From the NCBI GenBank assembly GCA_963771175.1, contig CAVYSY010000039.1, positions 1-64,000 on the forward strand: a stretch of DNA of 64,000 bases, read 5' to 3'. Below, in pieces: positions 7,287-33,960 of the stretch. The notes under the pieces are model-generated. The model was not told the origin of the DNA and did not search any database. It saw nothing but the letters and a program-made list of their open reading frames with translations. A program made the position numbers and the translations under genes. This DNA is from an uncultured delta proteobacterium (GTDB lineage Bacteria > Myxococcota > Myxococcia > Myxococcales > Myxococcaceae). Position 1 is the stretch's first letter. Each line of letters starts with the position of its first letter.

Positions 7287-7345
7287 GCTCCTCCCGGTAC
7301 AGTGTCCGGGCGACGATCCCACCTACAACGGCCCGCCGTGAGGCG

Positions 7346-8999
7346 CTACTTGCGGTGAAGCGCCACGGCGGGCGTGGTCTCCGCCACCACGGCGAAGGCC
7401 GCGCCCCGCTCCTCCGCGGGCAGCAGCTCCAGACTCGCCCCGAAGGCCCGCAGCATCGACTGGGCGATCGTCAACCCGAGCCCCGTCCCTCCCCGCTCGC
7501 GCGCGGTGGTGAAGAAGGCATCGAAGATGCGCGCACGGTTGGACGCGGAGATGCCCTGTCCATCGTCCCGCACCACCACCCGTCCCCTCCCCTCGCCCGC
7601 CGCCACGTCCGCCTCCAGCCGCACGTGCACGCCCTCGCCCCCGTGCTGCGAGGCGTTGGTGATGAGCTGCCAGAGGATGTCCTCCAGCACCTCGGCGGGC
7701 AGTCCCAGCCAGAGCCCCGAGGGCACGGGGGCCACCTCCACCCGCGAGCCCCTCGGCCCGGGCGCGCTCCGCGAGGGACTCCAGCAGCGGCGCCAGCTCG
7801 GTGCGTGAGGGGCGGGCCACCAGCGAGTCCGCGCGGGCCAGCTCCAGCAGCCGCTGCACCAGCCGGGTGAGGCGCCGGGCGTCCGCGTCGATGTTGGAGA
7901 GGAAGCGCTCGCGCTGCTCGGGCGTCATCTGCTCGGCGCTGTCCCGCAGCAGCTCCACCGCGCCCTGGATGGAGGCGAGCGGCGTCTTGAACTCGTGCGA
8001 CACGTTGGCCGCGAACGAGCGGATGTACTGGTTGCGATCCCTCAACGCCGAGGCCATGCCGGCCAGCGACTCGGAGAGCTCGGCGAGCTCCTGCACCACC
8101 GGGCGAGCCACCGGCTCGAAGCCCTCGGGGGCACTGGCGGCGATGGCCCGCGTCTGCCGCACCAGGGCCCTCACCGGGCGGACCACCAGCGTGGCCGCGG
8201 CCAGCGACATCAGCGCCACCACGCCCAGCAGCACCAGCCCGGTGGCCGTGAGGTTCCACCGGTCCGCGTAGACGGCCTTGGCGAACGTCATGGGCGTGCG
8301 CGAGAGCACCACCGCGCCCCAGACCCGCTCGCCCTCGAGGATGGGCAGCACCACCGTCACCCGCACGCCGGTGTCTCGGCTCAGGGAGGCGAGCGGAGCG
8401 TCATCGGGATCGGCGAGCCGCTGGCGCAGCACGCTGCGGGGCTCGCCGCGCAGGGCCCGCAGCACCTCCTCGCGGGCCGCCAGGGTGGTGCCCAGACTGG
8501 AGATACCGCTGGTCGCCACCACCACCCCTTGGGTGTCCACCACGCGGATGCCGGCCAGGGTGGAGCGCGCCACCTCGAAGAGCAGCGGGGAGAGCCGCTT
8601 GCCGGCCCGCAGCGCACGGGGCTCGGCGGGGATGGCCGAGAGCGGGGGTGGCTCCTCCGCCGGAGGGAGCGCCTCGTCCGAGGCGCGGAGGGACGGGAGG
8701 ATGGGCCGCAGGTGTGCGGCCGGCGCAGCGAAGGGCCACTGCACCAGGCGGGACGAGCCATAGACCTCGGTGCCCACGTGCTCTCGCAACAGGGCGCGGT
8801 ACACCTCGGACACGACGACGCCCTGGGTGATGAGCTCGGTCTCCGTCTGGCGGATGAGCTGGTTGTCGTAGACGCGCACGAGCACCAGGCCGAGCAGCGC
8901 CAGCACGAGGGCCCCGAGCCCCACGGCCGAGAAGACCATCCACAGGCGCGGGCGGGCGCGCCTGGCGTCAGGGGAGCGCGAGCCGGTAGCCAAGGCCAT
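7346..8999 (-). CDS. Sensor histidine kinase (CreC-like: TM-periplasmic-TM-HAMP-HisKA-HATPase), frameshift near 7745
   Basis: H-box NVSHEFKTPLASI in ORF 7323..9020. N/G1/F/G2 boxes (LITNASQH, DDGQGI, IFDAFFTT, GGTGLGL) in ORF 7346..7741. Start position is approximate. Confidence 0.85.
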
Positions 9000-9669
9000 G
9001 CACCGTCTGGATGACTTCACCGCCCACCGCGGCGAACTTCTGCCGGATGTGCCGCACGTGGCTGTCGATGGTGCGGTCGCTCACCACGACGTCCTCGTAG
9101 ACGCGCGTCATCAGCTCGTCGCGGGTGAAGGCCTTGCCGGGCGCGCGCAGGAGCGCGGCGAGCAGGTGGAACTCGGTGACCGTGAGCACCACCTCGTGCC
9201 CGCTCCAGTACGCGCGCCACAGCTCGAGGTCCAACCGCAGGGGGCCACGCTGCAACACCTGGGCAGGCGTGGACGTGGGCGCCGCCGGGACCGCTCGAGC
9301 CCGAGTGCGCCGCAGCACGGCCTTGATGCGCGCCACCAGCTCGCGCGGGCTGAAGGGCTTGGTGAGGTAGTCATCTCCGCCCAGCTCCAGCCCGAGGATG
9401 CGGTCCACCTCGTCGTCCCGCGAGGAGAGGAACACGATGGGCACCTCGTGGGCGCGGCGCACCTCGCGGCACATCTCCAGCCCGTCCAGCTCGGGCATCA
9501 TGATGTCCAGGACGATGAGCGCGGGCACGGAGCGCCGCACCTGCTCCAGGCCGGCGCGCCCGTTGGAGGCCTGCTCCACGTGGAAGCCCGCCTGCGTGAG
9601 GGCGAAGTGCACGACCTCGCGCAGGTGCGGATCATCATCGACCACCAGGATGGACGGGCGTTCGCTCAA
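8968..9669 (-). CDS. OmpR-family response regulator
   Basis: ILVVDDD, LDIMMP and KPF receiver motifs. Winged-helix RTIDSHVRHIRQK...TVHGLGY. Confidence 0.95.
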   Translation of the reverse strand: MSERPSILVVDDDPHLREVVHFALTQAGFHVEQASNGRAGLEQVRRSVPALIVLDIMMPELDGLEMCREVRRAHEVPIVFLSSRDDEVDRILGLELGGDDYLTKPFSPRELVARIKAVLRRTRARAVPAAPTSTPAQVLQRGPLRLDLELWRAYWSGHEVVLTVTEFHLLAALLRAPGKAFTRDELMTRVYEDVVVSDRTIDSHVRHIRQKFAAVGGEVIQTVHGLGYRLALP

Positions 9670-9732: not shown

Positions 9733-10137
9733 ATGCACAAGCGATTCCTCCTCGTGGCCGCGCTCTCCCTCGCCTCCTCCGCCCGGGCCGATATTCCTCC
9801 TCCGAATATGGAGGGGTGTTTCAACCAGGAGGCGGGCGCGAAGTGCAAGACCGACAGCGGTGATGATGGCACCTGCCAGAAGAAGACGTGCTCGCGCCTC
9901 GACTACAGCAACGGCGTGCCGCCGGGCTCCATCGATTACGACTGTCTCCTGTGCGTCGCGGGCCCTGCCCCCTCTACTCCGCCGGCCTCCACCCCCGCGG
10001 AGTCCAACGCACCCGCCACCAGCACGCCGGCCGCCACCACGAAGGGAAACAGTTGCGCGGCGATGCCCGGTGAGTCGCTCGGCCTGATGGTCCTCGTGGC
10101 TGGCTGGCTCGCCCGTCGGAGGAACCGGAACGCGTGA
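9733..10137 (+). CDS. Small secreted Cys-rich protein with Pro/Thr linker and MYXO-CTERM-like tail
   Basis: Signal peptide, six-Cys domain, PAST-rich linker, then GNSCAA-hydrophobic-RRR C-terminus. Confidence 0.7.
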   Translation: MHKRFLLVAALSLASSARADIPPPNMEGCFNQEAGAKCKTDSGDDGTCQKKTCSRLDYSNGVPPGSIDYDCLLCVAGPAPSTPPASTPAESNAPATSTPAATTKGNSCAAMPGESLGLMVLVAGWLARRRNRNA

Positions 10138-11135
10138 GCACCGTGGAGGCACTCCTCGCCCCCGCCGACGCCCTGCGCGCGAGGCTGTACCGCCTCGCCG
10201 CTCCGTGGGCCGCACCGCTCTTCGCCGATCGTGAACGGCGCGTGGCGTGGCTCGGCGTGGCCGGAGTGACCTTCTCGTTCCTGCTCACCCTCTCCGTGCC
10301 GCTCTGGAGCCTCGCGCTCGGCCCCGTGCTGCTCGGCGTGCCGCACCTCGTCTCGGATCTGCGCTACCTCGTCGTGCGCCCCGGGTTGCATCGCCGCACC
10401 GGTCTGGCCGTGCTCGGCGGCATGCCGCTCCTGGCCACCTGTGTCGGCGCCGGCCCGGCGGTGGGCCTGCTCGCGATGGTGCCGGCCACCCTGGGCGCGC
10501 ACGGTTCGTGGTGGCGCAAGGCAGGGGTGCTCTCGGGGTGGGCCGCTCTCACCGTGCTCGCCCTGCGCTTTCCCCTGGGCAGCCAGCTCGCCCTGCTCCA
10601 CGGACACAATGTGTTGGCGGTGGCGCTGTGGTGGTGGGCCTGGCGGTCGAGACACTCGCGCGCCTGGGGCGTGCCGCTGCTCGCCGTCGGGGGGACGCTG
10701 GCCCTGCTGCTCGGCGTGGCCGAGCCCGTGATGACGGCGCTCGGTGCCTGGACGGCCCCGGCGACGGGCACGTCCTTCGGTGAGTTCGTGGAGCAGTTGT
10801 CTCCGCTGGAGGGCCACCCGGTGCTGGCGCTTCGGCTGGTGCTGACCTTCGCCTTCCTCCAGTCGGTGCACTACGGCGTGTGGTTGCGCCTCGTCCCGGA
10901 GGAGGCTCGGACGCGCGCGGCACCGAGGCCCTGGCGGGCGACATGGCGAGCGCTGGTGGAGGACTTCGGGGCGCCAACGCTCGTGCTCTTCCTGGTGCTC
11001 GCGCTCGCCGTGGCCGTCTCGGGGCTGGTGGACCTCCGGGAGGCGCGGCTGGGCTACCTCCAGATCGCGGTGTTCCACGGATACCTCGAACTCGCCGTCG
11101 CGGCGCTCTGGCTCGTCGAGGGCCGGCGGACATGA
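10134..11135 (+). CDS. Polytopic membrane protein with conserved-looking His motifs
   Basis: Multiple hydrophobic helices with GVPHL, LLHGHN, SVHYGVWL and FHGYLE. GTGA overlap with the upstream gene. Confidence 0.75.
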   Translation: MSTVEALLAPADALRARLYRLAAPWAAPLFADRERRVAWLGVAGVTFSFLLTLSVPLWSLALGPVLLGVPHLVSDLRYLVVRPGLHRRTGLAVLGGMPLLATCVGAGPAVGLLAMVPATLGAHGSWWRKAGVLSGWAALTVLALRFPLGSQLALLHGHNVLAVALWWWAWRSRHSRAWGVPLLAVGGTLALLLGVAEPVMTALGAWTAPATGTSFGEFVEQLSPLEGHPVLALRLVLTFAFLQSVHYGVWLRLVPEEARTRAAPRPWRATWRALVEDFGAPTLVLFLVLALAVAVSGLVDLREARLGYLQIAVFHGYLELAVAALWLVEGRRT

Positions 11136-11452
11136 CGCGGTGGCTCGCCGCCTTCGTGCTGACGCAGGTCCTCGAGGTGCCCCTCTACCTGCGTGCCGGC
11201 GCGAGCTGGCGCACCGCCTTGCTGGCCAGCACCCTGACCCATCCGGTGGTGTGGTTCGGCTTCCCCCTTCTGGGCCGATGGGGTCTCGGCTACTGGGGCA
11301 TGGTGGCCGCGGCGGAGACCTTCGCGGTAGGGGTCGAGGCGCTCTGGCTCTCCGCCCACGGGGTGCGGCGCGCATTCGCGTGGAGCCTGCTGGCCAATGC
11401 GACGAGCGTCGTCGGTGGCCTGCTGATCCGCTCCCTGTTCGGCTGGCCCTGA
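11132..11452 (+). CDS. Small membrane protein
   Basis: MTRWLAAFVLTQVLEVPLY...LTHPVVW...AETFAVGVEA...ANATS. ATGA overlap with the upstream gene. Confidence 0.7.
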   Translation: MTRWLAAFVLTQVLEVPLYLRAGASWRTALLASTLTHPVVWFGFPLLGRWGLGYWGMVAAAETFAVGVEALWLSAHGVRRAFAWSLLANATSVVGGLLIRSLFGWP

Positions 11453-11534
11453 GCCCAGGGGGCGGAAGGATAGATGTCCAAGTTCGGACGTTTCCATGGG
11501 AAGATGGGGCTCCCGCCTTCCGTACGCCCCCCGA

Positions 11535-12155
11535 ATGGATACGCCAGGTAGATCCGGCCCACCCCAGCCGCCGCTCGGCTCCGATGAGGAGCTGAAACAG
11601 CGACAGTCGCTCATCGCGCCAACGCACACCATGCGCGGGCTCTTCTTCAATTCCGTGCTGGAGGTGGTGCGGAGCCTGGGAGATGAGACCGCCGTGCAGC
11701 GCTGTCTGGCGGCCAGCGGGGAGACGAAGTTCCAGGATCTCGCCAGCTACCCCACCAGCACGTTCCTCCGGATGCTCTACACGGCGGGCAACCTCCTGAG
11801 CTCCAGGTTCGGCGGCTTCGAGGGGGCCCTGCGGCCGCTGGGCTCCCGGACGATGATGAAGTTCCTCGCCTCCGCCGCGGGCAAGGCCCTGCAAGGGGTG
11901 GCCGAGGACGACCCGCAACGGCTGATCGCCAACATCCCGCTGGTCCACAGGATGGTGTTGATGGGGGGAGACTGCACGGTGAAGTCGATGGGCTCGAACC
12001 GCAGTCTCCTCGTCATCGAGCGCATCTCCACCCCCGCGGCCTTCATCGAGGGCGCGCTGCAGATGACCCTCGAGGCCGCGAGGGTGCGAGGCGTGCGGGT
12101 GACCTCCCGACAGACGGGGACCCTGGACGCCGAGTTCGAGGTGTCCTGGACGTAG
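11535..12155 (+). CDS. DUF2378 / TIGR02265 myxococcal family protein
   Basis: TMRGLFFNSVL, SYPTSTF, FLASAAGK and EFEVSW signatures. Confidence 0.8.
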   Translation: MDTPGRSGPPQPPLGSDEELKQRQSLIAPTHTMRGLFFNSVLEVVRSLGDETAVQRCLAASGETKFQDLASYPTSTFLRMLYTAGNLLSSRFGGFEGALRPLGSRTMMKFLASAAGKALQGVAEDDPQRLIANIPLVHRMVLMGGDCTVKSMGSNRSLLVIERISTPAAFIEGALQMTLEAARVRGVRVTSRQTGTLDAEFEVSWT

Positions 12156-12170
12156 GTCTCGGGGAGCGGG

Positions 12171-14481
12171 TCAGCCGCCGAGCACGGTCGCGAGCGCCCG
12201 GTACTCGGGTCGCAACATCCGCTCGGCCTCGCTGCCGGCCACGACCACCGGGAGCATCGCATCCTCCAGCCCGGCCTCGGCCGCGAGCCTCACGGCGATG
12301 GGGGCCATCACCGTCGCCTCGATGAGCCGCTTCAACGGCCGGGCACCCAGCTTCGGATCGTAGCCGTGGCGGGCGAGCCAGGCGCGCGCCTCCGGCTCCA
12401 CCACCAGCCGCAGCCTGCGCCTCAGGAGCCCCGCTCGCGAGGCCGCCTTCTCCAGCTCCAGGTCGACGATCCGCAGCACGTCCGACTCCTTCAGGCGCCG
12501 GAACGGGATGACGTGGTCGATGCGGTTGAACAGCTCCGGCCGGAACGCCTGCCGGATGGCGCGCAGGAAGTCCTCCGCGCCGCGCTCGGCCCCGAAGCCC
12601 GCCGGCTCCGACTGCTCGACGCCGAGGTTGCTCGTCATGCAGACCACCGTCATCCGGAAGTCCACCAGCCGCCCGAGGCTGTCGGTGAGTCTCCCCTCCC
12701 CCAGGATGCCGAGCAGCAGATCGAAGACGTCCGGGTGGGCCTTCTCGATCTCATCGAAGAGGACGAGGGACATCGGCTGCTGCCGCACCCGCTCGGCGAG
12801 GCTGGTGATGCCGGGGCCCACCTCCATCAACCGCTGCGCGGAGCCGGGCAGCATGTACTCGGACATGTCGAGCCGGACCATCCGGTCCTCGTTGCCGAAG
12901 AGCGTGCGCGCGAGCTGCTTGGACAGCTCGGTCTTCCCCACGCCGGTGGGCCCGGCGAAGAGCAGCGTGCCCACCGGCTTCTCCGGATCATTGAGGCCGG
13001 CCTTGAACCGCGCGAGCACGCCCGCGGCCTGCTCGCAGGCCCGGTCCTGCCCGATGACGCCCTGCTTCAGGTGCGCCGCGAGCGTGGCCTGCTCGGCGGG
13101 GATCTCATCGCTGATGAGCTGGAGCGGCAGCCCGGTGTAGCGCGCGTAGGCCTCGGAGACGTCGCGTGGGTAGAGCGTTCGGGTCCTGCCGCGCTCGCCC
13201 TGCTGGTCGAGCCAGTCGAGGAACCGGTACGCCTTCCCCGGGAACAGGCTGTCGCGCTGGAACATCTCCAGGTGCCCGACGAGCTGCCGCAGGCCCAGGG
13301 GGTGGATGCTCACCCGGCTGCGCTTCGCCGACTGGTAGCGCTGCATCAACTCCGGCACCAGCGAGGCCGGGGGCGCCTCGATGCGGATGATGCGGAAGGG
13401 GCGCAGGGCCTCCGGGAAGCGCCGCTGGCAGCGCTCCAGCTCGGCCTCGGTGCACTCGGCGATGAGGGAGAGCTCCTCGCTCATCGCGGCCGGGAGGAGC
13501 AGATCTCCAATCGACGAGCCGTCCGGCTGCGGCGCCAGGAGCGAGGTGAGGCGGTCGACGTAGAGGTAGTCGTTCTCGAACGAGAGCGCGTCGATGATCT
13601 TCAGGCAGCGCTCCTGCCACATGCCCAGGTACACCATCCCGGCCACGATGCGCTCGGCACTGGTGCGCCAGATCTTCGGGAAGTGAGCCTTCTTGTCGTC
13701 CTTCGCCTCGCGCCGCCGTTCCGCGATCAGCCGCGCGAGCTGTAGCACCCAGCTCGTCTTGCCGACGCCCGGTCCCCCCACGAGGAGGAGCGACACCGGC
13801 GGCCGGTGCAGCACGTAGGAGAGGAAGGCCCCCAGGGTATGCCCGTCGTAGACCAGGGCCGGCTGCCGTGCGCCCAGCGCGCGCGAGGTCAGCTCCTCGC
13901 CGATCTGATCGAGCACCGGGGGCGGAGGCTCCTCGTGGTCGCCGCGCCGGGCGTCCCGCACCAGCTCGCCGGGGTCCCAGCTCCGGACGAACTCCTCGCC
14001 CTCGTGGCGGAAGTCGTAGAGCCCCTTGGGCTTCTCGCCGAGCAGCGCGGTGGTGAGCGCGTTCTGCAGCACCTCGCGCGCGATGGAGAGCTCCTCGATC
14101 ACGAACGACCAGCCGAAGCGAGGCACCCGCCACGCGCCAGGTGCCGCTCTCCATCTTCCCGTAGACGTACGTCAGCTTCAGCGGGACGAGCGCCTTGGCG
14201 ATCACCGGCCGCTTCTTGTGCACGGTCTGCGGATGCACCTCCACGGTGATCGTCCGCGCCTGCAGGGACTCCTCCCACAGGAAGCGCTCCAGCGAGGCGG
14301 CCTCGTCGAGCTGCATCTGCCGCACCTGCATCTCCAGCAGGGCGTAGACCTCGGCCTCGCTGGCGCCGTAGGCGGACGGTGGCGGGTCATCGAAGAAGCT
14401 GTCCCACACCGGGAGCAACTGCCCGGTCAGCCGGCCGTCGTGGTGGGTGGTGAAGTAGACGCGAAGGCTCTTGTCATTCAT
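12171..14481 (-). CDS. ClpA/B-like double-AAA+ protein #3, frameshift near 14135
   Basis: Start MNDKSLRVYF at 14481 (ATGA overlap). D1 GGPGVGKT and IVAGMVYLGMWQER. D2 GPTGVGKT, DMSEY, DEIEKAH, TSNLG, RPELFNRID and GARPLKR. Confidence 0.85.
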
Positions 14482-17400
14482 GGGTTCTGGCTCATCCGCA
14501 ACCGCCACAGGCTCGGCAGGGCCTCCCCGGGAGACCGGACCCGGTGGCTGCCGCTGTAGGTGAGCAGGTAGTCGTCGAGCTCCAGCACCGACACCTCGCC
14601 CGGACGGGAGGGCGGCTCGAAGCGATAGGCGCGGACCACCGGAGCGGCCGCCTCGGGATCCTCCGGCAACGGGCTCACGCCCGACTGGCGCGCCTCGTGG
14701 AAGGCCCGGAGCTTCGCGGCGTGCAGCTCGAGCAGCCTCGCCGGCTCGGGCGCGCTCGTCTCGTGGACGCGGACCTTCACCACCTCCGGGAGCCGACCCG
14801 AGGACTGCCAGACGTGCAGCCCACCCTCCCCCTCGAAGAAGGGACGCACGCCCGGACCCACCAACTTGATCGCGACGTGGACCGGCTCCAGTGGCGAGCC
14901 GTGGAAGTCCTGGAGCTGCCGGGGACCACCGGACACCACGGCGCCTCCGGGGAGATGGGCGGCGAAGCTCTCCACCTCGCCTCGTGCGCCGGCATAGGCC
15001 TCGCAGAGCCACGCCGTGAGCAGGGAGCCTGCGGCCGCGCCGTGCCGCCACTGCCCGAGCGGGAGCAGCTCCAGCGTCACCACGTGCTGATCCGGGCTGG
15101 AGAGCTCGCGCAGGACACGCTGCAGGAAGTAGACCTCCGCCAGCGCGTCGAGCATCTGCTCGCGGGAGACCGCCTTCACCGGCTCGAGGGCCCGCCGGGC
15201 GAAGAGCCGGATGCGCTGGCCCTCCCCATCTCCGCTGGCCGAGGAGCGGCGCTCCACCACCCCGAAGCGGTCGACCTCGATCATCTCCCGCGCCGCCTCC
15301 TCGGGAGCCCGCGCGAGGGACTCCAGCCGCGCCGCGAAGTCCTCCAGGTACAGCCGCATCGCGTCGAGCGTGTAGAGCGATCCGGCGTGCTCGCGCTCAC
15401 CCGCCTGGAGCCGCTCGAGGTGGAAGCGGACCTGCTCGGACAGCGTGCCGAGCGCGTGGCTGTGCCGCATCCGCTGCACCTCCTCGCGCGCCTCCAGTGC
15501 CTTCTCTCTCAGCCGGGCCACGGGCAGCGCCAGGAGCGGCTCGAGCGCGAAGCCCTCGGTGGCCGGCTCGCGGGACACGAGCGCGTCGGCCTGCACCTCG
15601 AAGCGGCCCTCGCGGGTGTAGAGCTGGAACAGCCGCAGCAACGACTGGGGCCCGCGGATGATGGCCTCGGAGAGGGCCTGACCGACCTTCTCCTCCAGGT
15701 AGCGCTTCAGCGGACGCGCGCCCAGTTGGGCGTCGAAGGCCTCCTCGACGATGCGGCGCTTCACCGCCTCGTCGGCGGACACGAAGATGTTGCGCGACGT
15801 CAACCCGTGCCGCGACAGCAGCCGCGCGAGCTCCTTCTCCACCACCTTCTCCCCCGACTCCCGGGAGAGCGGCGAGAAGTGCACGATGTGGTCGATGCGG
15901 TTGAAGAGCTCGGGCGGGAAGAACTCGCGCACCGCCCGGTCCGCGTCGAGCGCCAGGGCCCGGGCGTCCGGAGGGCCGAGGCTCACCGTTGGCTTCTGGC
16001 GGGCCCCGAGGTTGCTCGTCATCACGATGACGGTGTGCGTGAAGTCCGCCGTCTCGCCCGAGGCGTCGGTCAGCCGGCCCTCGTCGAACGTCTGGAGCAG
16101 CAGGTTGAGCAGCGCCGGGTGGGCCTTCTCGATCTCATCGAGCAGCACGAGCGAGAAGGGCTGCTCGCGGATGAGGCGCGTCAGGCGGCCCTCGGGTTGC
16201 CAGGCATCACCGGTGAGCCGCGCGACGGCGTCCGGCGTCTGGAACTCGGCCATGTCGAGCCGCACCATGCGGGACGCATCGCCGTACAGGTAGCCGGCCA
16301 GTGCGCGGGCGAGCTCCGTCTTGCCCGTGCCCGTGGGGCCGGTGAAGAGGTAGACGCCGTAGGGCCGGCGCGGATCCGTCAGCCCGGAGTGGATGCGCGC
16401 GATGAGATCGCACGCCACCTCCACCGCCGCCGGCTGGCCCATCACCTTGCGCGAGAGGGCCGCGTGCACGTCGGCCGGCTCCAGCTTCTTGTGGGGGTGG
16501 AGCAGGAAGTCCGGCAGGCCCGTCCTGCGCGAGAGGTGCTCGAAGAGCATCCCGACGTCGATATCCAGCCCCTTGCCCCCGTAATCGGCGGCCAGCTCAC
16601 GCAGCAGATCCAGCGCCTTGCCCGGCAGCGCGGCGCCCGAGAAGAGCGAGCTGGCCTGTTCGAGCAGGGCCGGGAAGAGCGGCGGAGACCAGCTGACCCG
16701 GTGTCGGCCCTCCAGCTCCCGCGCCTCGTGCAGCAACATCCGCAGCGTCTCGTCGGCGCTGGTGGGCCTCACGTGGAGCTGGGTGAAGAGGGCGGCGAAG
16801 GACGGTGCATCGGACTCGAGCCGCTGGAGCTGCTCCGGCGTCACCGTGCCGACGAGGGAGATCTCCCCGCGCGCGAGCGCCCCCTGGAAGAAGAGCGCGA
16901 GGTTGGCGTCACTGTCGCGCGAGCGGCCGATGCGGCCGAAGGCATGCAGGTCCTCGACGAGGAGGATGCGCCGCCCTCCCCTCGAGTCCTCGAGCAGCTT
17001 CAGGCAGCGCTGCTCCCAGTCGCCCACGTAGCTCATGCCGGCGATGATCCGCTTGCCGGCGATCGACCAGACCTCGGTCACCTTGTCCAGGTTGCGGTGG
17101 GTCTGGAAGCCCTCGGCCTCGAGCTGCTCGGCCACGAAGCGCTTGAGCAGGGTCCGCTTGCCGGAGCCGGGAGCACCGACGAGCAGCACCGGTGTGCGCC
17201 GCTCCCCACCGAGCAGGAGCTGGAGCTGCTCGCGATAGGGACTGCGTGGCATGCCAGTGTCGAGCGTGCCCTCCGCCGCCTGGAGGGTGAGGTTCGTCCC
17301 GAGGTTCTGCAGCACCTGGGTGCCCGCGCGCGGCTTCTGCTGCTTCTTGCCGTGCTTGTCCTTGAGCTCCAGGTCGTCCCAGGGGCCCTTCTTCTTCCCA

Positions 17401-17930
17401 AGCTCATCGAGCAGCGAGCGGGGCTGGGCCACGAACGCGAGCGCCTTGAGGCTGTCCTTGCCGTTGGAGCGCAGCTCCTCGAGCTGGTGCAGCTCCAGCG
17501 CGGCCCAGGCGCGGGTGAAGAAGAGCTTCGCCTGCTCCTCCAGGCTGGCCGAGGGATCGATCGGGAACCACTCGTCCTGGCGCAGGGGGTGGTAGGCGAT
17601 GGTCATCTCCTCGCCACGCGTGCGCCAGCGCGGCTCGAGGATCAGCGGGAAGACGCCGGACAGGCGCCGCGTCTCGGCCCCGGCACGCACGCGCTTGAAG
17701 TCGAGCTCCAGCCGCACCCGCTGCAGGTAGAGGCCGCGCGGGAGCTGGAAGTACGCCAGCTCCCGGACCGGCAGCTCGCCGATGATGCTCCGCAGGTCGT
17801 CCACGAGCTTGCGCTGCAGCTTGACCGTGCTCCGGCCCTCTCGGCTGCGGGTATGGGGGCCGAGCCCGATCGTGGTCCAGCGGAAGCCGGAGGAGTCCCG
17901 GCTCTGGTAGACGGCGAGGGTGAGGTTCAT
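14478..17930 (-). CDS. ClpA/B-like double-AAA+ protein #2 with C-terminal release-factor-like domain
   Basis: 1150 aa. D1 GAPGSGKR, D2 GPTGTGKT/DEIEKAH/GARPLKR. C-terminus has IKLVGPGVRPFFEGEGGLH and VVRAYRF. Confidence 0.85.
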   Translation of the reverse strand: MNLTLAVYQSRDSSGFRWTTIGLGPHTRSREGRSTVKLQRKLVDDLRSIIGELPVRELAYFQLPRGLYLQRVRLELDFKRVRAGAETRRLSGVFPLILEPRWRTRGEEMTIAYHPLRQDEWFPIDPSASLEEQAKLFFTRAWAALELHQLEELRSNGKDSLKALAFVAQPRSLLDELGKKKGPWDDLELKDKHGKKQQKPRAGTQVLQNLGTNLTLQAAEGTLDTGMPRSPYREQLQLLLGGERRTPVLLVGAPGSGKRTLLKRFVAEQLEAEGFQTHRNLDKVTEVWSIAGKRIIAGMSYVGDWEQRCLKLLEDSRGGRRILLVEDLHAFGRIGRSRDSDANLALFFQGALARGEISLVGTVTPEQLQRLESDAPSFAALFTQLHVRPTSADETLRMLLHEARELEGRHRVSWSPPLFPALLEQASSLFSGAALPGKALDLLRELAADYGGKGLDIDVGMLFEHLSRRTGLPDFLLHPHKKLEPADVHAALSRKVMGQPAAVEVACDLIARIHSGLTDPRRPYGVYLFTGPTGTGKTELARALAGYLYGDASRMVRLDMAEFQTPDAVARLTGDAWQPEGRLTRLIREQPFSLVLLDEIEKAHPALLNLLLQTFDEGRLTDASGETADFTHTVIVMTSNLGARQKPTVSLGPPDARALALDADRAVREFFPPELFNRIDHIVHFSPLSRESGEKVVEKELARLLSRHGLTSRNIFVSADEAVKRRIVEEAFDAQLGARPLKRYLEEKVGQALSEAIIRGPQSLLRLFQLYTREGRFEVQADALVSREPATEGFALEPLLALPVARLREKALEAREEVQRMRHSHALGTLSEQVRFHLERLQAGEREHAGSLYTLDAMRLYLEDFAARLESLARAPEEAAREMIEVDRFGVVERRSSASGDGEGQRIRLFARRALEPVKAVSREQMLDALAEVYFLQRVLRELSSPDQHVVTLELLPLGQWRHGAAAGSLLTAWLCEAYAGARGEVESFAAHLPGGAVVSGGPRQLQDFHGSPLEPVHVAIKLVGPGVRPFFEGEGGLHVWQSSGRLPEVVKVRVHETSAPEPARLLELHAAKLRAFHEARQSGVSPLPEDPEAAAPVVRAYRFEPPSRPGEVSVLELDDYLLTYSGSHRVRSPGEALPSLWRLRMSQNP

Positions 17931-20900
17931 CGCTTCACCCCCTGGAGCTTGTCGAGCGCGAAGGAGAAGGTGCCCTCACGATCGAGCCCATCGAGGAGCT
18001 CGAGCACGGAGAGGTGTTCGAGCAGGACCCGCTCGAGGTTCCGGAAGTAGTCCGGAGTGGCGAGCGTCAGCTTGCGATCGCCCTCGAACAGGGAGAGCAC
18101 ATCATCGGGGAGGTGCTCGCGCACGGGTGGCACCAGCCGGAGCTCATGGGGGACCTGCGGCGCCGGGGGCGCGATGGCTGGCAACTCGAGCTCCTTCTCG
18201 TACAGGTGGGTCCGCATCGCCACGGGCAGGACCGTGAGCAGGACTGGCTCGTCCTTCTCCAGCGGGGGGTAGCGGTGCAGTCCGGCCTCGAGCGCGAGGA
18301 AGGCCCCGGCGTTCAACCCCGCGACCGACAGCAGCACCTCGCGAAAGGCACGGGAGGGCTCGACGAGCGCCTTCCTCAGCTCCTCGGCGTTGAGGACCGC
18401 GCCCCACTTGCGCTTGCGGTCGCTGCTCTTGCTGGTCACCGACGGGCGTCCCCCGATCGACCACCCGCGCCGGGGCGCGTCCGCGAGCAACGGCAGCAGG
18501 TAGCGTTCGAGGGCGCGCCCGTCCTTGGACTCCTGGAGGATCAGCGTGATGGCGTCCCGGCGGGGCAGCAGCGCGAGCAGCATCGAGGGCATCAGCTGAC
18601 GGAGGCCCCGGAGCTGCTCTCGGGCGTCCTCCACGAAGGGGCCGGCGTCCTGCTGCTCGAAGAGGGCCATGAGTGCCAGCTCCTCGGCGGCCACCAATGC
18701 CGCGCGCAACCGCTGCGCCTGCGTCCAGATCCCATTGAGTCGGTGGTGCGACTCCTGGAGCTTCGCCACCGAGGAGGCCTCGGGGCCCCGCTTCTCCTCC
18801 CGGTCCCCCTGGGAGAGCTGGGCCACCAGGAAGCCGAGCTCCTCCTTGAGCTGCTCCACCGCGTCGAGCTGGAAGAGCGAGTCCATGGCCCGCCGCTCCG
18901 CCTGCAGCTCGCGCACGAGGCCAAGCTGGTTCCGCGCCGACCTCGGGCTCCCCTTGTGCAGCTCCACCGCGATCCCCTCCGGGCGCGGAGCGATGACCAC
19001 GCGACCGCCCTGGGCATCCGGTCCCGACGAGGAGAGCGCGCGGGCGATGGGGACGACGAGCTGCTGGTCCAGGTGCCTGCGCATGGCTCGGGCGCCATAG
19101 GCCTCCTGGTAGCCCGACGTGGCGAGCGTGGTGGTGATCTCCGGCGGCACGTGGAGCGAGATGCCTCGCTGGAGCAACCCGCGCCGCAGCCGCAGTTTGT
19201 CCACACCGAGCCTCGCCACCTCCGCCGCCTGCTCGGACGTGAGCGGGTGGAAGGGAATGAGCTGATCGATGCGGTTGATGAACTCGGGCCGGAAGCTCCG
19301 GTGCACCTCACGCAGGTAGTACGAGCTGTCGTCCACCGCGGTCGCGCCGATGCCCAGCGTATTGCGCCGGTGGGCCGCCCCGAGGTTGCTGGTCATGATG
19401 ATGATCGCGTTGTGGAACCAGGCCGTCTGCCCGCGAGCATCCGTGAGCCGCCCTTCCCCGCAGACCTGCAGGAGCAGATCGAAGACGGCCGGGTGGGCCT
19501 TCTCGATCTCATCGAGCAGCAGCACGCAGAAGGGCTGCTGGCGGACCCGCCGCGTGAGGTGGCCCTCGCCCTGGGTGTTGCCCCGGATGAGCCGGTCGGC
19601 GGCCCAGGCGTCCATGTACTCGCTCATGTCGAAGCGGAACATCCGCTCCGCCGAGCCGAACAGGAACGTGGCGAGCAGCCGCGCGAGCTCCGTCTTCCCG
19701 ACGCCGGTGGGGCCCACGAAGAGGAAGGTGGCCAGTGGCTTGCCCTGCGGCTGCAGGCCCGCCTTGACCATGCACAGCGTCTCCACGACGCGGCGCACCG
19801 CCGTCTCCTGGCCGATGAGCTGGCGGCGGAACCACGCCTCGAGCTCGGGCGCCAGCAGCGCGCGATCCTCGCGAAGGAGGAACTCGGGGACGCCGGTCTT
19901 GAGGCTGAAGAGCGAGTACACCCGCTCCCGGGTGAGCTCGGGCACCTGACCGCTGGCGGTGCGCTCCTGCTGCAGGCCCGCGCGCATCTCCTCATAGAGA
20001 CGCACCGCCTTGCCGGGTAGCGCGCGGCCCGGGAGGTAGCGCTCGGCCAGCTCCACGAGCGGCTCCACCGCGGCATCGGCCAGCGTGGGCCGGGAGGCGT
20101 CCGCCTTTCGCTGCCAGGCCGCCCGTGCCCGCAGGGCCTCGCGGGTGTGCTTCGCCCCCAGCGGCTCCAGGCGCACGCACGAGAGGGTGGCGAAGAGGCC
20201 CGGCTGCCGGCTCTCCAGTAGATCCAGCGAGTCGGGGGTGAGCTCGCCGAGGAACCGCACCTTGCCCTCCTCCAGGAAGGGCTTCATCGCGCCGGGGATG
20301 TCGATGGACTCGGAGGAGTGCTGCGCGAGCAGCTCGCCGAGGTTCTCGAAATAGAGGACGGCATCGAGGTCCTGCGCCGCGCGCATCACGCGCAGCACGC
20401 GCTCCTGCCACTGGCCGAAGCCGGACATGCCCGCGAGCAGCCGCGAGCCGCTCGTCGCGTACACCCGCCGCTGGCGGCCGGCCTTCCGCTCAGCGCGCAG
20501 CCACGCGTGGAGCAGCTCCGTCTTGCCCGCCAGCTCCGGGCTGACGAGCAGGACTCCCTGTCGCTTCTCGCCGCCGAGCAGGCTCGACAGGAGCGCGAGC
20601 TCGGTGTCCCGGCCGACCAGCGGAGGCCCATGCCGGGCCTCCTCGCGCTCGTGGAGCTGCGTGGAGACGGTGAGGAGCACCTCGTGCGCCTGGTCTCGCT
20701 TGAGCTTCTCCTGCTGCTTCTTCTTCGCCTGCCGGGCCTTCTCGCTGAACACGTCCTGGCGCCTGAGCTGGAGCGGGACGGTCTCCAGCGTCACCGATCT
20801 TGGCGGCAGCAGCCGCAGGTACTCGTGGGCGGTGGGCTCGCGCGCGGCGAGCATCCGCTCCACGTCCGCGCGGACGATCTCCCGGACATCCTGGTTCCTG

Positions 20901-21277
20901 CCCACGTGGACGGTGTGGTCGATCGCGGGGACGAAGACCCACGTCTCCTCCGCCAGGGGCACGACGACGGCGGTCATCTCCACGGTGGTGGGCTTGACGA
21001 GGCGCTTGGGCAGATCGGCGCGCGGCGCGAGGATCTCCAGCGTCTCCAACCGGACCTGCTCCGGCAGGGAGAAGCGGGCGAGGACCTCGGGCTCCGCCTT
21101 GGAGAGGTACTCCTCGAGGAACAGGCGCTGCTCGGCGAGGCAGGCCTCCCGGGTGGCCGCGTGGCTCGTCAGGGCCGGCGCGGCCACGGGAAACGCCTGG
21201 TGGTCCCCGCTCCAGAGCTGGAGACAGAGGAGTGGCGTGGAGAACTCGAGGATCCCTGGCGCGTGGGTGGGGGCCAT
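17927..21277 (-). CDS. ClpA/B-like double-AAA+ protein #1 with C-terminal release-factor-like domain
   Basis: 1116 aa. D1 SPELAGKT, D2 GPTGVGKT/DEIEKAH/RPEFINRID. C-terminus has RRGWSI...EVLLSVAGLNAGAFLALEAGLHRY. Confidence 0.85.
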   Translation of the reverse strand: MAPTHAPGILEFSTPLLCLQLWSGDHQAFPVAAPALTSHAATREACLAEQRLFLEEYLSKAEPEVLARFSLPEQVRLETLEILAPRADLPKRLVKPTTVEMTAVVVPLAEETWVFVPAIDHTVHVGRNQDVREIVRADVERMLAAREPTAHEYLRLLPPRSVTLETVPLQLRRQDVFSEKARQAKKKQQEKLKRDQAHEVLLTVSTQLHEREEARHGPPLVGRDTELALLSSLLGGEKRQGVLLVSPELAGKTELLHAWLRAERKAGRQRRVYATSGSRLLAGMSGFGQWQERVLRVMRAAQDLDAVLYFENLGELLAQHSSESIDIPGAMKPFLEEGKVRFLGELTPDSLDLLESRQPGLFATLSCVRLEPLGAKHTREALRARAAWQRKADASRPTLADAAVEPLVELAERYLPGRALPGKAVRLYEEMRAGLQQERTASGQVPELTRERVYSLFSLKTGVPEFLLREDRALLAPELEAWFRRQLIGQETAVRRVVETLCMVKAGLQPQGKPLATFLFVGPTGVGKTELARLLATFLFGSAERMFRFDMSEYMDAWAADRLIRGNTQGEGHLTRRVRQQPFCVLLLDEIEKAHPAVFDLLLQVCGEGRLTDARGQTAWFHNAIIIMTSNLGAAHRRNTLGIGATAVDDSSYYLREVHRSFRPEFINRIDQLIPFHPLTSEQAAEVARLGVDKLRLRRGLLQRGISLHVPPEITTTLATSGYQEAYGARAMRRHLDQQLVVPIARALSSSGPDAQGGRVVIAPRPEGIAVELHKGSPRSARNQLGLVRELQAERRAMDSLFQLDAVEQLKEELGFLVAQLSQGDREEKRGPEASSVAKLQESHHRLNGIWTQAQRLRAALVAAEELALMALFEQQDAGPFVEDAREQLRGLRQLMPSMLLALLPRRDAITLILQESKDGRALERYLLPLLADAPRRGWSIGGRPSVTSKSSDRKRKWGAVLNAEELRKALVEPSRAFREVLLSVAGLNAGAFLALEAGLHRYPPLEKDEPVLLTVLPVAMRTHLYEKELELPAIAPPAPQVPHELRLVPPVREHLPDDVLSLFEGDRKLTLATPDYFRNLERVLLEHLSVLELLDGLDREGTFSFALDKLQGVKR

Positions 21278-21372
21278 TCACCCGGCATCCTATGCCGCCG
21301 TACCTGAAGAGTGGACAGGGCATCGATCGCACGCGTGATGAGGTACGCTGGCCGCAGGAGGCGTACCTCATC

Positions 21373-22434
21373 ATGCCGCACGAGAACCCGAGCATCTTCC
21401 AGTCCGCGATCGACCGGCGCCTGCGTGACGCACTGCTCGCCGACAGGAATGCCCAGCGAATCGGCACCCTCGCGAGGCGGAGGCGACTGCTGACGGACGC
21501 GCTCCGGCTGACGCGCTCGGTGGCTCCGGCGGTCGTGGATGCGCTGGCCGCCTGTCGGGAGACCCTGGGCCACGAGGGTCCCGTGGAGCTGTTCGTCCAG
21601 CCGGATCCGAGGTTCCACGCCGCGGCGGTACGGGCCCCCGGAGAACCTCCCGCCATCGTCCTCGCCTCCCGGCTCATCGAGACGCTCACCGAGGCCGAGC
21701 TGCGCTTCGTCATCGGCCACGAGCTCGGCCATATCCTCGAGCACCTCGCCCTCCCCCTTCCGGTCGGCGTCGAGGACCTGGAGGCAAGGCCCCTCCCGCG
21801 CGCCACCGTTCTCGCGATGGATGCCTGGAACCGGGCGGCGGAGGTCAGCGCCGATCGGGCGGGGCTGCTGTGCGCCAAGGATACCGAGGCCGCCGTGAGT
21901 GCCTCGTTCAAGCGGGCCAGCGGCTTGTCCTCCGCGTCCGTGAAGTCCGAGCTGGCCGCCTACACGCGCCAGGTGGACGCGCTGCTGTCCTCGCCCGCGG
22001 CCCGAGAGAAGCCGCGCGAGGACGATGACACGCTCGGCTGCTTCATCACCCACGCCTTCAGCCCCCTGCGCATGCGTGCCCTCGTGGCGTTCTCCCGGTC
22101 GAGGACCTTCCTCCGGGTGGCGGGGCACTACGCCAGCGAGGAGGGCCGTCCGGAAGAAGAGATCGACGCGCTCATCGCGCGGGACTTCCGGGAGTTGGAG
22201 CCCTCGGGTCTGGCGGAGAAGCTCCCGTCGGGAGACATGCTCGCCCGGCTGTGTCAGGAGACGTCCCTCTCGGAGCGGGCCCGGTTGGTGCGGCACCTCA
22301 CCCTGGTGGCGGCCGCGGAAGGCCCGGTGAGCGACGCGTGGTTCCTGGAGTTGCGACAGGTGGCCGAGGCGCTCGCCATCCCCCTGTGGCTCATTGACGA
22401 GGCGCTTCGCGGCGCCACCTACCCGATGGATTGA
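21373..22434 (+). CDS. M48-family zinc metallopeptidase with C-terminal TerB-like region
   Basis: AGGAGG RBS before the ATG at 21373. ELRFVIGHELGH, RAAEVSADRAG and THAFSPLR motifs. C-terminal LVAAAEGPVSDA...LRQVAEALAI is TerB-like. Confidence 0.75.
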   Translation: MPHENPSIFQSAIDRRLRDALLADRNAQRIGTLARRRRLLTDALRLTRSVAPAVVDALAACRETLGHEGPVELFVQPDPRFHAAAVRAPGEPPAIVLASRLIETLTEAELRFVIGHELGHILEHLALPLPVGVEDLEARPLPRATVLAMDAWNRAAEVSADRAGLLCAKDTEAAVSASFKRASGLSSASVKSELAAYTRQVDALLSSPAAREKPREDDDTLGCFITHAFSPLRMRALVAFSRSRTFLRVAGHYASEEGRPEEEIDALIARDFRELEPSGLAEKLPSGDMLARLCQETSLSERARLVRHLTLVAAAEGPVSDAWFLELRQVAEALAIPLWLIDEALRGATYPMD

Positions 22435-25400
22435 TGATGCCTTCCCAGAGCGGTCCGATCGCGATCGTCGCCTCCGCGTGCCGATTGCCGGATGCCGCCA
22501 CGCCCGAAGCCTTCTGGAACAATCTGATCGCGGAGCGCATCTCGATGCGCTCGCCCCCCGAGGGCCGCTGGCCGGATCACCCGGACGCACGGGTCGGGTC
22601 GTTTCTCGATGATGTGCGTGGGTTCGACGCGGCGTTCTTCGGAATGAAGGGCGGCGAGGCCGAGTTCACGGACCCACAGCAGCGGCTGCTCCTGGAGACC
22701 GCGCATGAGGCGCTGGAGCGCGCCGGGTTCGCGGGCCCCCGCCGGCGCAACCGGCGCACCGGTGTCTTCGTGGGCGTCGGTCAGTCTGATTACCAGGAGG
22801 GGATCCTCCGGCTCCTATGGGCGGGCGTGCCCGTGCACCCCAGCGCGGCGGTGGGGAACCTGCGGAACCTCATCCCCTCCCGCGTCTCGCACGTCCTGGA
22901 CCTGTCCGGCCCCTCGCTGGCCATCGACACCGCGTGCTCGTCATCGCTGGTCGCCCTGCACCTCGCCTGTGAAAGCTTGAACCGCGGCGAGTGCGAGCTC
23001 GCGCTGGCCGGGGGCATCACGCTGAACCTCACCCCCACCGTGTTCACCGTCCTCTCGCGCGCCGGGGCGCTGTCCCCCTCCGGCAGCATCCGCCCGTTCG
23101 CTCGGGATGCGGACGGCATCGTGCTCGGAGAAGGTCTGGGTGTGGTCGTCCTGGAGCGGCTCGATGACGCGCTCCGGCGGCACGCTCCCATCCTGGCGGT
23201 GGTGCGCGGAAGCGCGCTCAACAATGACGGTCGCACCTTCAACCCGATGGCTCCCAATCCCGCCCGGCAGATCGCGGTGATGCGGGAGGCGTGGCAACGG
23301 GCCGGGCTCGACCCGGCGAGCGCGAGCTACCTCGAGGCGCACGGAACCGGCACCCGTGTCGGGGACTCGATCGAGGCGCGCTCGGTGTCGGCGGTCTTCG
23401 GAAGGCCGGGCACGAACGAGCCGCTCGGGATGGGCTCGGTGAAGGGCAACGTCGGGCATCTCCTGAGCGCCGCCGGAATGGCCAGCCTGCTCAAGGTCGT
23501 GTCCGCGCTCCAGCACCGCACGCTCCCGGCCTCGGTGCATGCCGGCTCGGCGGCGCCGGAGCACGGACTCACATCGGCCGGCATCGCCCTGGTGGACTCG
23601 CCGCGTCCGTGGAGCGGGCCGGAGCCCCTGCGCGCCGGCATCAACGGCTTCGGGTTTGGCGGAACCAACGCCCACGTCATCCTGGAAGAGCCACCCGAGC
23701 GCCCTCCCCGCCCGCGCTCCCCCGGCACGCGCCCCCTGCTGTGGATGGTGTCCGCTCGGACCGACACGGCGCTCCGAACCACCGCGCGGAACCTCGCGTC
23801 CTGGCTCCGGGAGAATCCGGAGGTGGATCTCTCGGACGCCGCCCTGTCCGCGAGTGTCTCGCGAGATCCGGGCCCCCATCGGCTCGCACTCGTCGGGGCG
23901 GAACGGGTTCCGGAACGGCTCGAGACCTGGGCGGCTGGAACACCCGCCGAGGTCCTCCACGGCGTGGTCCCCGACCGCGTGGCGAGGAGGAAGGCGCGCA
24001 ACGGAGCCTCGTTGGAGGGGGCCTCGGCGGAGGTCGCCGCGAGCGCGTTCGTCGAAGGAGAGGCGTTCGACCGGCTCGCGTGGGACGAGGAGCCGGACCG
24101 CGAGCACGTGCCGGTGCCCACCTACCCCTTCGAGCATCGGCCGTGGTGGGTGCCCGATGCGCCCCCGGCCACGGCCTCGGCGTCGCGGCGGATCGAACAT
24201 CCGCTTCTGGTGGACGAGCTCGAGCTCACGATGGACCGGGCGGTGCTCCTCGCGCGCATCGTGCCCGACGACCCGCTCGTCTCCGAACACGTCGTACATG
24301 GAGTGCACCTCCTCCCGGGCGCCGCGTGCATCGAACTGATGCGTGCGGCGGCACGGCACGCACTGGGCACGGAGCCCGCGGGCCTCGCGGAGGTCACGTT
24401 CGCGCGGCCCGTCCGGGTGGACGACGAGGCCTGTACGGTGCGCGTCGGGGTCGAGCGTCGGGGTGATGACCTCGAGGTCTCCTTGTCGGACGAGGACGGC
24501 GGTGTGCTCGCTCGGGCGAAGGTGCTCCGCACGAAGCGGGCGCCGGCAACGGCACCGGGGAGCGATGAGCCTCGCACGCGTGGGTTCGAGCCCTCCGCCC
24601 TATACGAGGGACTCCGCGAGCGAGGGATGGACCACGGGGCTTCACTGCGCGCCGTCCGGGCCATCGAGCTGGGCGAGCGGACCGCGCGCGCGGAGCTCTC
24701 CCTGCCAGAAGAGGCACGGGGTCGAGCGTTCGGCGTGCATCCCGCGCTGCTCGATTCCGCCATGCAGCCGATCGCGGCACTCCTGCTGGCCCACACCCGT
24801 GAGCGGGAGGGCCTGTACGTGCCGATGCATGTGGAGCAGGTCGAGCTGCTCGGCCCCATCCCCGACCGCTGCGCGGCGCTGGTGACGCTGAACGGAGATC
24901 CGCGGGCACCGGGCGATGTCGTGCAGTGCGAGGTGGAGATTCGCGTCGGGAACGAACCGAGGCTGCGCCTTCGCGGGCTGCGCCTTCGCCGCGTCACGGC
25001 CGAGGCACTCCAGGGCACCGAGCGCGATGTCCGGGCCTGGATGCGCGAGGTGGTCTGGCGGGAGGCTCCCCCGGAGCAGTCCCAGCCTCCCCGGGGACGT
25101 TGGGTCGTCGTGCCCGCGGCACATCCGGCGAGCCCCCAGGTCGCCCGCCGCCTGCGCGACGCGGGAGCGACATGTGAGCGCGTGGACCCGTCGGAGCTGA
25201 AGGCGGCGCTCGCCCGGGGTGAGACCGAAGGGGTCGTGTTCCTCGGCCCGACGGGGAAAGCGACCCAGCCCCCGGATGTGGCCTCGTTCGATCAGGCCCA
25301 GCGGGACGGAGCCCTGGCGCTGCTCGCGGTCGCCAGAACCTGTGATGCGCTCGACCGGGATCGACGTCCCGCGCGCCTGCTCGTGGTGACCGCCGGCGCG

Positions 25401-32186: not shown

Positions 32187-32191
32187 CCGCC

Positions 32192-32224
32192 AAAAGAAAA
32201 ACGGGAGCGTCTCCGCTCCCGTTT
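32192..32224 (-). terminator. Rho-independent terminator between convergent genes
   Basis: Hairpin AAACGGGAGCG-TCTC-CGCTCCCGTTT (32199-32224), followed by a T-rich tract on the minus strand. May be bidirectional. Confidence 0.75.
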
Positions 32225-32247
32225 CCCTCACCCAGCTATTTCGAGAA

Positions 32248-33357: not shown

Positions 33358-33689
33358 GTCGCGGACTTCCTTTGCTGGGGGGACCGGCGATTCGGCTCGT
33401 TCCCGGGCGATGCCGTCCGGGCACGAACTGACCATCAGCAAGACTCAGGCCAGTTGCCGGCTTTCGAGGAAATGCGGAGTTACGAGACGCCCCACCCGCT
33501 CCGGGGAGCATCGAGGCTCCACCACCGGGACGCCGGAATGTAAAGAGTCGACACGGTCGTTGGGCCATTCCTCAGTAAAATCAAGGACATTGGCTGATGC
33601 ACGAAACCGTCCGAAAACAGGACAGCGACTGTCCTCATTGAGGTCACCCAGCCCATGGTGGCGCAGAGCCTCGGGAAGGGGCACGCCCC

Positions 33690-33960
33690 AAACAAACACA
33701 TATCAATTCACATGTCGTTTGATTATCTTGATATTAATTGCCATTGCCATTGTCATTGCATCATACACAACACACAATTGCTACCAAGAACAAGGAGGAT
33801 AATCACAAGCAACGCAAAATGACGAGCGATTGACTAAGCAAGACAAAACACATATCAACCAACAGCAACTACGGCAAGCCGGACAAAAGCAAACACAATC
33901 AAACACAAAGCCGTGTCAATTGCTCTCGCAGCTACAAAGACAAACAATACGCCAACGTGA
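33690..33960. promoter_or_regulatory. AT-rich intergenic tract with repeated AAACACA(T)ATCAA motifs
   Basis: Exact 13-mer AAACACATATCAA at 33694 and 33846, a variant at 33891-33910, and tandem ATTGCC/ATTGTC at about 33737-33760. Confidence 0.45.

Follow-up and report, generated by a model that had tools for sequence, protein, structure and literature searches.

A myxobacterial operon of three Clp-type AAA+ paralogues, two of them with a predicted release-factor-like C-terminal module

Bacterial Hsp100/Clp unfoldases are encoded by single genes and are aimed at their substrates by small N-terminal domains or by adaptors, and ClpA, ClpB and ClpC are homohexamers. A heterohexameric type-II AAA+ machine is found in eukaryotes with Pex1/Pex6, which belongs to a different AAA+ clade and whose paralogous subunits combine an inactive first AAA+ tier (D1) with an active second tier (D2) as the motor. 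To our knowledge, release-factor (RF) folds occur only in free translation factors, and we know of no other use of the fold. In eukaryotic ribosome quality control, Vms1 has been linked to the unfoldase Cdc48 (PMC6514570). In this work, we have analysed a 64,000-nucleotide (nt) stretch of DNA, hereafter the window, from an uncultured delta proteobacterium of the Myxococcaceae (GenBank assembly GCA_963771175.1, contig CAVYSY010000039.1, positions 1 to 64,000), and describe three minus-strand genes in it, g1, g2 and g3 (Table 1). They form a co-inherited trio of Clp-type paralogues, restricted to one phylum among the named matches, in which D1 appears dead and D2 live, and two of them carry at their C-termini the scaffold of a release factor that lacks the catalytic GGQ domain.

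Domain architecture of the trio

Each of the three proteins matches Pfam AAA_2 and ClpB_D2-small (E 1e-39 to 1e-43; in g1 at residues 513–672 and 679–752, respectively), and the pairwise identity among them is 27–34%. As in ClpC and ClpA, there are two AAA+ tiers, AAA_2 and D2-small lie in D2, and a ΦGF-type tripeptide stands at the position of the ClpC AGF loop. On the other hand, the trio departs from ClpC and ClpA in several respects: a novel N-terminal domain replaces Clp_N, D1 has no Walker-B glutamate, the D2 pore loop is short and has no GYVG, g1 and g2 bear an RF-like tail, and there are three co-inherited paralogues where ClpC or ClpA has one gene. Against the NCBIfam equivalogs for ClpA, ClpB, ClpC, ClpV, ClpK and ClpG, the best scores are 290–319 bits, far below the cut-offs of 885–1900, which agrees with the original prediction that these proteins are non-canonical and not general housekeeping Clp. 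Judged by their sequences, g1, g2 and g3 are best classed as ClpC/ClpA-type double-AAA+ paralogues outside the housekeeping families, and they form a self-contained unit. Proteins of the trio types are currently named ClpA, ClpC or plainly "AAA family ATPase" in the databases, and the present finding corrects these names.

The trio was also expected to lack the Clp_N repeats and the ClpB M-domain, and both expectations hold. No Clp_N match was found in g1–g3 with Pfam, either in the whole proteins at E ≤ 0.01 or in the N-terminal pieces at E ≤ 10. In g3, residues 300–318 bridge what are residues 382–521 in Thermus thermophilus ClpB, so that there is no M-domain. In g1 and g2, the alignment to the ClpA model is a single stretch and that to the ClpB model falls into two, which again leaves no M-domain. 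This is the state of ClpA. ClpB/Hsp104 is the best-scoring relative of D2 (T. thermophilus ClpB, 1qvr, E 1e-82 for g3), but the trio differs from it by the missing M-domain and the inactive D1, and ClpB in turn has no ΦGF at the aligned site.

In place of Clp_N, all three proteins have a novel N-terminal domain. The AlphaFold2 (AF2) model of this domain in g2 is confident, with a predicted local distance difference test (pLDDT) above 90 over residues 1–170. Compared with the PDB by Foldseek, it gave a best E of 0.12, and HicB was not among the matches listed; there was no Pfam match at E ≤ 10 and no usable match in the ESM Atlas. Since a confident model finds no PDB match, the HicB-like domain proposed earlier is not supported.

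Behind the AAA+ tiers, g1 and g2 end in a module of about 370–390 amino acids (aa). We have folded the g2 module (residues 762–1150) from an alignment of 38 homologues, and the model reaches a pLDDT of 89.1 and a predicted TM-score (pTM) of 0.84. In the PDB, Foldseek found 38 matches to it at E ≤ 1e-3, and those listed are all RF1, RF2, mtRF1/mtRF1a or termination complexes (best match 7oj0_8, E 2.5e-6). The alignments span 220–440 columns, and the fold is shared with RF1/RF2 over about 370–440 aligned columns. That is, the model has the predicted class-I release factor fold with domains 1, 2 and 4, and we regard the C-terminal modules of g1 and g2 as built on this scaffold. At the sequence level, PCRF is the only Pfam family that the g1/g2 modules match repeatedly: 7 of 17 modules (set A6) do so, with a best E of 2.9e-4, below the 24-bit cut-off (E 0.072 for the window g1 module). 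A profile of eight g1 modules (A7) matches Thermotoga maritima RF1 (2fvo, 1rq0) at E 0.066–0.07, aligning module positions 224–280 to RF1 134–193 with the strand motif G..A...L..E.G.HR. An RF-like domain had been noted from the beginning, and the structural match together with these weak sequence matches upholds it.

The module does not contain the hallmarks by which release factors act. No GGQ occurs in the window g1 and g2; the string is present in 4 of 118 g2-type and 8 of 118 g1-type proteins, at scattered positions that are not conserved. Pfam RF-1, the GGQ hydrolase domain, is not matched by the g1/g2 modules even at E ≤ 10, and from the domain-2-like to the domain-4-like strands, where domain 3 would be expected, there are only about 45 residues, which form one helix and a loop. 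Around the PVT tripeptide of RF1 the alignment has a gap of three residues, and the g1 profile has no counterpart, so PxT/SPF is absent as well. As the catalytic GGQ domain is missing, the module should be unable to release peptides in the way of RF1/RF2. Compared with RF1/RF2 (also PrfH and ArfB), the trio module thus shares the fold, the strand motif and a weak PCRF signal, whereas it differs in having neither domain 3 nor PxT/SPF and in being fused behind an AAA+ motor. When the module profile (A6) was run against 1.84 billion proteins, 265 were found, and these are either proteins of about 1100–1240 aa with the module at about 750–1150, or short fragments.

We have found no description of an RF-like/AAA+ fusion in the searched portions of the literature, nor in the covered part of a survey of release factors (PMC6514570), which centres on the hydrolase domain that the trio module lacks. 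This literature check, suggested at the outset, indicates that the combination of an RF scaffold with a Clp motor has not been described before in those sources. In functional logic, the closest analogy is Vms1/ANKZF1 with Cdc48/p97, where an AAA+ unfoldase likewise has a release-factor-like module as its partner. The likeness goes no further than analogy, as the folds are unrelated: Vms1 belongs to the aeRF1 superfamily, is catalytically active and binds Cdc48 non-covalently, whereas in the trio the RF scaffold is of the bacterial type, has no catalytic domain and is fused to a Clp-type motor.

Table 1. Positions of the trio genes, their parts and the neighbouring features in the window.
Feature	Coordinates	Strand	Description or basis
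g1 (P0001)	17927..21277	-	1116 aa; novel N-domain, D1 predicted hydrolysis-dead, canonical D2, C-terminal RF-like module
g2 (P0002)	14478..17930	-	1150 aa; g1-type architecture; sole paralogue with an aromatic D2 pore-loop residue
g3	12171..14481	-	About 770 aa if read through; frameshifted in the window; without RF-like module; canonical D1 Walker A, AGF loop
ATGA overlap, g1 stop / g2 start	17927..17930	-	Open reading frame calls and DNA comparison
ATGA overlap, g2 stop / g3 start	14478..14481	-	DNA comparison
1-nt insertion breaking g3	14127..14133	-	Comparison with L001–L021; block spacing; switch of frame in third-position G+C
RF1/RF2-like module of g1, residues 753–1116	17930..19021	-	Weak PCRF and RF1 profile match; aligns with the g2 module; no GGQ domain
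RF1/RF2-like module of g2, residues 762–1150	14481..15647	-	AF2 model and Foldseek
N-terminal domain of g2, residues 1–180	17391..17930	-	AF2 model; fold without known relative
M48-like peptidase ORF	21232-22434	+	Pfam E 2.2e-11; divergent from g1
HisKA histidine-kinase ORF	7323-9020	-	Homologue downstream of the trio in 7/26 loci
DUF2378 protein	11496-12155	+	E 4.9e-37; converges on the g3 end
670-aa ORF overlapping the DUF2378 gene	9936-11948	-	No Pfam match; 73%-identical tblastn match in L002
Hybrid PKS/NRPS ORF	22431-32186	+	3251 aa; KS, DH, KR, carrier, adenylation and condensation domains

Motor residues, integrity and inheritance of the three genes

For the motor residues, we have counted alignment columns over 118 g1-type and 118 g2-type proteins (listed matches of 1050–1250 aa) and 115 g3-type proteins (730–800 aa), with shorter and longer ones dropped. 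In D2, none of the three families varies in the Walker A motif, the D and E of Walker B, the sensor-1 N, the arginine finger or the sensor-2 R. In D1, all three families retain the Walker-A lysine, and the second acidic position of Walker B reads N in 71 and D in 33 g1-type proteins, D in all 118 g2-type proteins, and R in 99 and A in 8 g3-type proteins; the catalytic glutamate is lost in all three families. Since the lysine is kept and the glutamate is gone, D1 should bind nucleotide without hydrolysing it. As a detail of the window copy, g1 has Ser at residue 246, the first glycine of the D1 Walker A (family G111/S7).

The pore residues are distributed unequally among the families. At the D1 pore position, g1-type proteins have G (113/118), g2-type proteins Y or H (72 and 23) and g3-type proteins Y (113/115), while an aromatic D2 pore residue is confined to the g2 family (W in 81, F in 17). 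At the position of the ClpC AGF motif, a ΦG(F/I/Y) tripeptide is found in all three: [V/A]G[F/Y] in g3, [V/I]G[F/I] in g2 and [L/I]G[I/F] in g1. In g2 homologues the Gly is present in 112 of 118 and Phe in 77, and A509-G510-F511 of g3 aligns with AGF 671–673 of Staphylococcus aureus ClpC. The AGF motif of ClpC docks into the H-sites of ClpP, and mutation of G672/F673 abolishes the binding (PMC12521514).

In the window, g1 and g2 are intact at the lengths first predicted, 1116 and 1150 aa, and the third paralogue, put at about 770 aa, is split. The span of g3 from 14481 to 12171 is 2311 nt, a multiple of three plus one, and as written it falls into 14481..13105, a frame of 458 aa that follows the native sequence for only about 118 residues, and 14126..12171 with 651 aa. 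Between the conserved blocks at the site, the window has 7 nt where the Archangiaceae loci L001–L023 have 6 nt in 23 of 23 cases, among them L001, whose g2 is 95% identical to that of the window. The G+C content at third codon positions (GC3) is 0.95 ahead of the site; beyond it, the old frame, which continues for 340 codons, has a GC3 of 0.45 and the new frame one of 0.96. The orthologues of g3 are intact, with 766–774 aa in 18 of 18 modelled loci and 750–797 aa in most database matches. In addition, at the columns conserved to 95% or more (159, 159 and 189), the window proteins show no deviation, so we reject decay of the operon. A programmed frameshift is unlikely and was rejected too, because the site has neither a stop nor a slippery context and the extra base is present in 0 of 23 relatives. 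With relatives in frame, GC3 switching at the site, orthologues intact and conserved columns kept, the break in g3 is either a sequencing error or a very recent mutation.

In a genome scan with a five-row alignment (A3), we have obtained 26 loci, mostly from Archangiaceae and only three from distant lineages. The two ATGA overlaps named in the original prediction are real, and the first is strictly kept: all 16 loci that hold both g1 and g2 have the 4-nt overlap. The g2/g3 junction is more variable over 18 loci: the two genes overlap by 4 nt in 7 of them and by 8 nt in 4, and lie 3–4 nt apart in 7. In the neighbourhood search for tandem homologues, proposed with the prediction, the order g1-g2-g3 is kept in the Archangiaceae loci, whereas in L024 and L025, two metagenome-assembled genomes (MAGs) of distant Myxococcales, g2-g3 stand with no g1 within 7–10 kb. 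In L020, L022 and L023, the trio genes come in several tblastn pieces, which points to assembly indels; two of these three are whole-chromosome 'contig_1' records.

A search of Planctomycetota and Bacteroidota as well as of Myxococcota had been proposed; every named match to g1, g2 and g3 is from Myxococcota, and none from the other two phyla. Orthologues of g1 are 42–92% identical at 93–100% coverage, and full-length g2 homologues 42–87%. The named homologues include Archangium, Hyalangium and Cystobacter, which puts the window in the Archangiaceae of the Myxococcota; all three types also occur in Chondromyces, Byssovorax, Labilithrix, Sorangium, Sandaracinus, Minicystis and Pendulispora. Taking equal size of the longest contig as the only proxy for residence on one contig, matches of all three types agree at 14586, 14594 and 15289 bp, g2 with g3 at 13043, 12919, 17283 and 10745 bp, and g1 with g2 at 10314, 11349, 19360, 21898 and 23032 bp; a g1-type protein of 53% identity agrees with L025 in this measure. 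A protein of 1927 aa from a Polyangiales MAG (P0055) was considered as a g2-g3 fusion and rejected, for low-complexity read-through makes up both the junction and the C-terminus; a frameshift artefact in the MAG is the most likely origin, and the protein shows only that g2 and g3 are adjacent there.

In a quick IQ-TREE analysis of 36 rows that we chose from about 350, each paralogue is set off from the other two by a branch with 100% support in the Shimodaira–Hasegawa-like approximate likelihood ratio test (SH-aLRT). Each of the three groups holds Archangiaceae and Polyangia, and the branching is similar across the groups. As each paralogue group has members from both lineages, the triplication predates them, and the three paralogues are ancient and co-inherited.

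Possible roles of the trio

The joining of an RF scaffold to a Clp motor is a hint that the translation apparatus may be the target. The explanation that we prefer, tentatively and short of calling it probable, is a mixed-ring, ClpP-coupled unfoldase aimed at the translation machinery by its RF-like tails. The three proteins would build mixed hexamers, in which D1 would serve for assembly and D2 would be the motor. In such rings, g2 would provide the aromatic D2 pore loops, g2 and g3 together the D1 pore tyrosines, and g1 would be a non-gripping, targeting subunit. Through its tails the machine would dock to the A-site region of the ribosome or to another binding partner of release factors, the ΦGF loops would dock the rings to ClpP, and a translation-associated substrate would be pulled into the protease. 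The trio would then be a non-catalytic, RF-guided machine for extraction and degradation, and not a release factor. We infer the mixed rings from the tight coupling of the genes, their joint retention and the complementary pore loops; a ring built of g1 alone would lack aromatic pore-1 residues in D1 as well as in D2. Pex1/Pex6, with its paralogous subunits, inactive D1 and active D2, offers a parallel to the proposed mixed rings.

A more specific version, which we consider unlikely, is that the heterohexamer feeds ClpP while the GGQ-less tails plug the A site of stalled or damaged ribosomes, and the motor extracts and destroys the nascent chain or a bound factor. If true, bacteria would have a covalently fused equivalent of the Vms1-Cdc48 step, and with it a rescue route without peptidyl-tRNA hydrolysis by a release factor. 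In the broader sense, a motor that carries an RF scaffold and is kept throughout a phylum as three specialised paralogues would represent a novel means of directing an unfoldase, and should the tails bind ribosomes, the trio would represent a new kind of bacterial ribosome-associated quality control.

Several observations weigh against the preferred explanation. The TM-scores of the Foldseek matches to the g2 module are low (0.18–0.37), as expected for a multi-domain, flexible protein. The A6 profile did not reach canonical release factors among the 1.84 billion proteins, and a search of the PDB with the A2 profile found none either, so the resemblance to release factors is mainly structural. 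The module has neither the elements that read stop codons nor those that reach the peptidyl-transferase centre, and hence ribosome binding is not implied by any motif. On the motor side, the D2 pore-1 loop is shorter than the GYVG loop of ClpB in g1, g2 and g3, and the machine may not be a classical polypeptide translocase; residues 649–652 of the window g2 read V-S-L-G where the family reads V-G-F-G. No clpP and no translation gene is conserved beside the trio. Finally, typical Hsp100 proteins are homohexameric, the coupling of genes by itself is no proof of co-assembly, and g1 is apart from g2-g3 in L024 and L025.

These points feed two other readings. The RF-like fold may have been exapted for a non-ribosomal job, such as a platform for substrates or adaptors, an oligomerisation device or a regulatory arm, and the trio would be a specialised Clp-type unfoldase/protease for some myxobacterial substrate. 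The loss of both RF hallmarks, the lack of detectable RF kinship in the profile search and the absence of conserved translation genes nearby all fit this reading, but it leaves aside that all three domains of the scaffold (1, 2 and 4) are kept in a model of high confidence and have been conserved since before the Myxococcia/Polyangia split, and that we know of no RF fold put to another use; we hold it possible, yet on the doubtful side. Alternatively, the genes may simply be tandem paralogues, each forming its own homohexamer with separate clients, and the overlaps would reflect a compact operon and nothing else. The characterised ClpA, ClpB and ClpC are indeed homohexameric, the D2 ATPase sites are complete in all three proteins, and g1 is unlinked from g2-g3 in L024 and L025. 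This is difficult to reconcile with the lack of aromatic pore-1 residues from both tiers of g1-type proteins and from D2 of g3-type proteins, with the retention of all three genes in every sampled lineage under congruent branching, and with junctions conserved at 8 nt or less, and for these reasons it seems rather unlikely to us.

A role as an anti-phage or conflict system, in which the RF-like module senses a takeover of translation and the AAA+ ring executes the response, appears very unlikely. It could draw on the PADLOC models DolB, PDC-M37B and mad8, which match only the generic AAA_2 part (E 1e-6 to 1e-26), and on the integrase beside g3 in L024. However, no complete known system was matched with PADLOC, there are no partner genes, the operon has no effector such as a nuclease, toxin or protease, and the tree pattern fits vertical descent. 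The flanks are also stable in Archangium-like loci: 10 of 26 loci, each of them Archangium- or Vitiosangium-like, have an M48 homologue upstream of g1, and 7 of 26 have a HisKA homologue downstream.

Neighbouring genes and other features

Across the distant loci, the flanks are not conserved, and no clpP, toxin or translation gene is among them. In L024, an rve-family integrase open reading frame (ORF) lies directly after g3 (13124-14131, minus strand), and an M23 peptidase is found downstream in both L024 and L025. In the window, the M48-like ORF shares 46 nt with the 5' end of g1 in its listed form, and the peptidase gene therefore probably starts further along.

A scan of 11400–22000 for promoters and terminators returned 0 sites of either kind, and over the whole window there were 0 hits from Rfam at the gathering threshold and 0 from ARAGORN. 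A plus-strand ORF at 14544-18050 (1168 aa) runs antisense to g2, and further long antisense ORFs exist in the window. Such ORFs are expected in DNA with the G+C content of the window, about 71%, and we regard them as shadows and not as genes; the ORF at 14544-18050 was rejected as a high-GC shadow of g2.

The hybrid polyketide synthase/non-ribosomal peptide synthetase (PKS/NRPS) ORF begins at the end of the divergent M48-like ORF, and long ORFs follow beyond it. Within 32001–34000, the G+C content is 0.619, compared with 0.67–0.74 elsewhere in the window.

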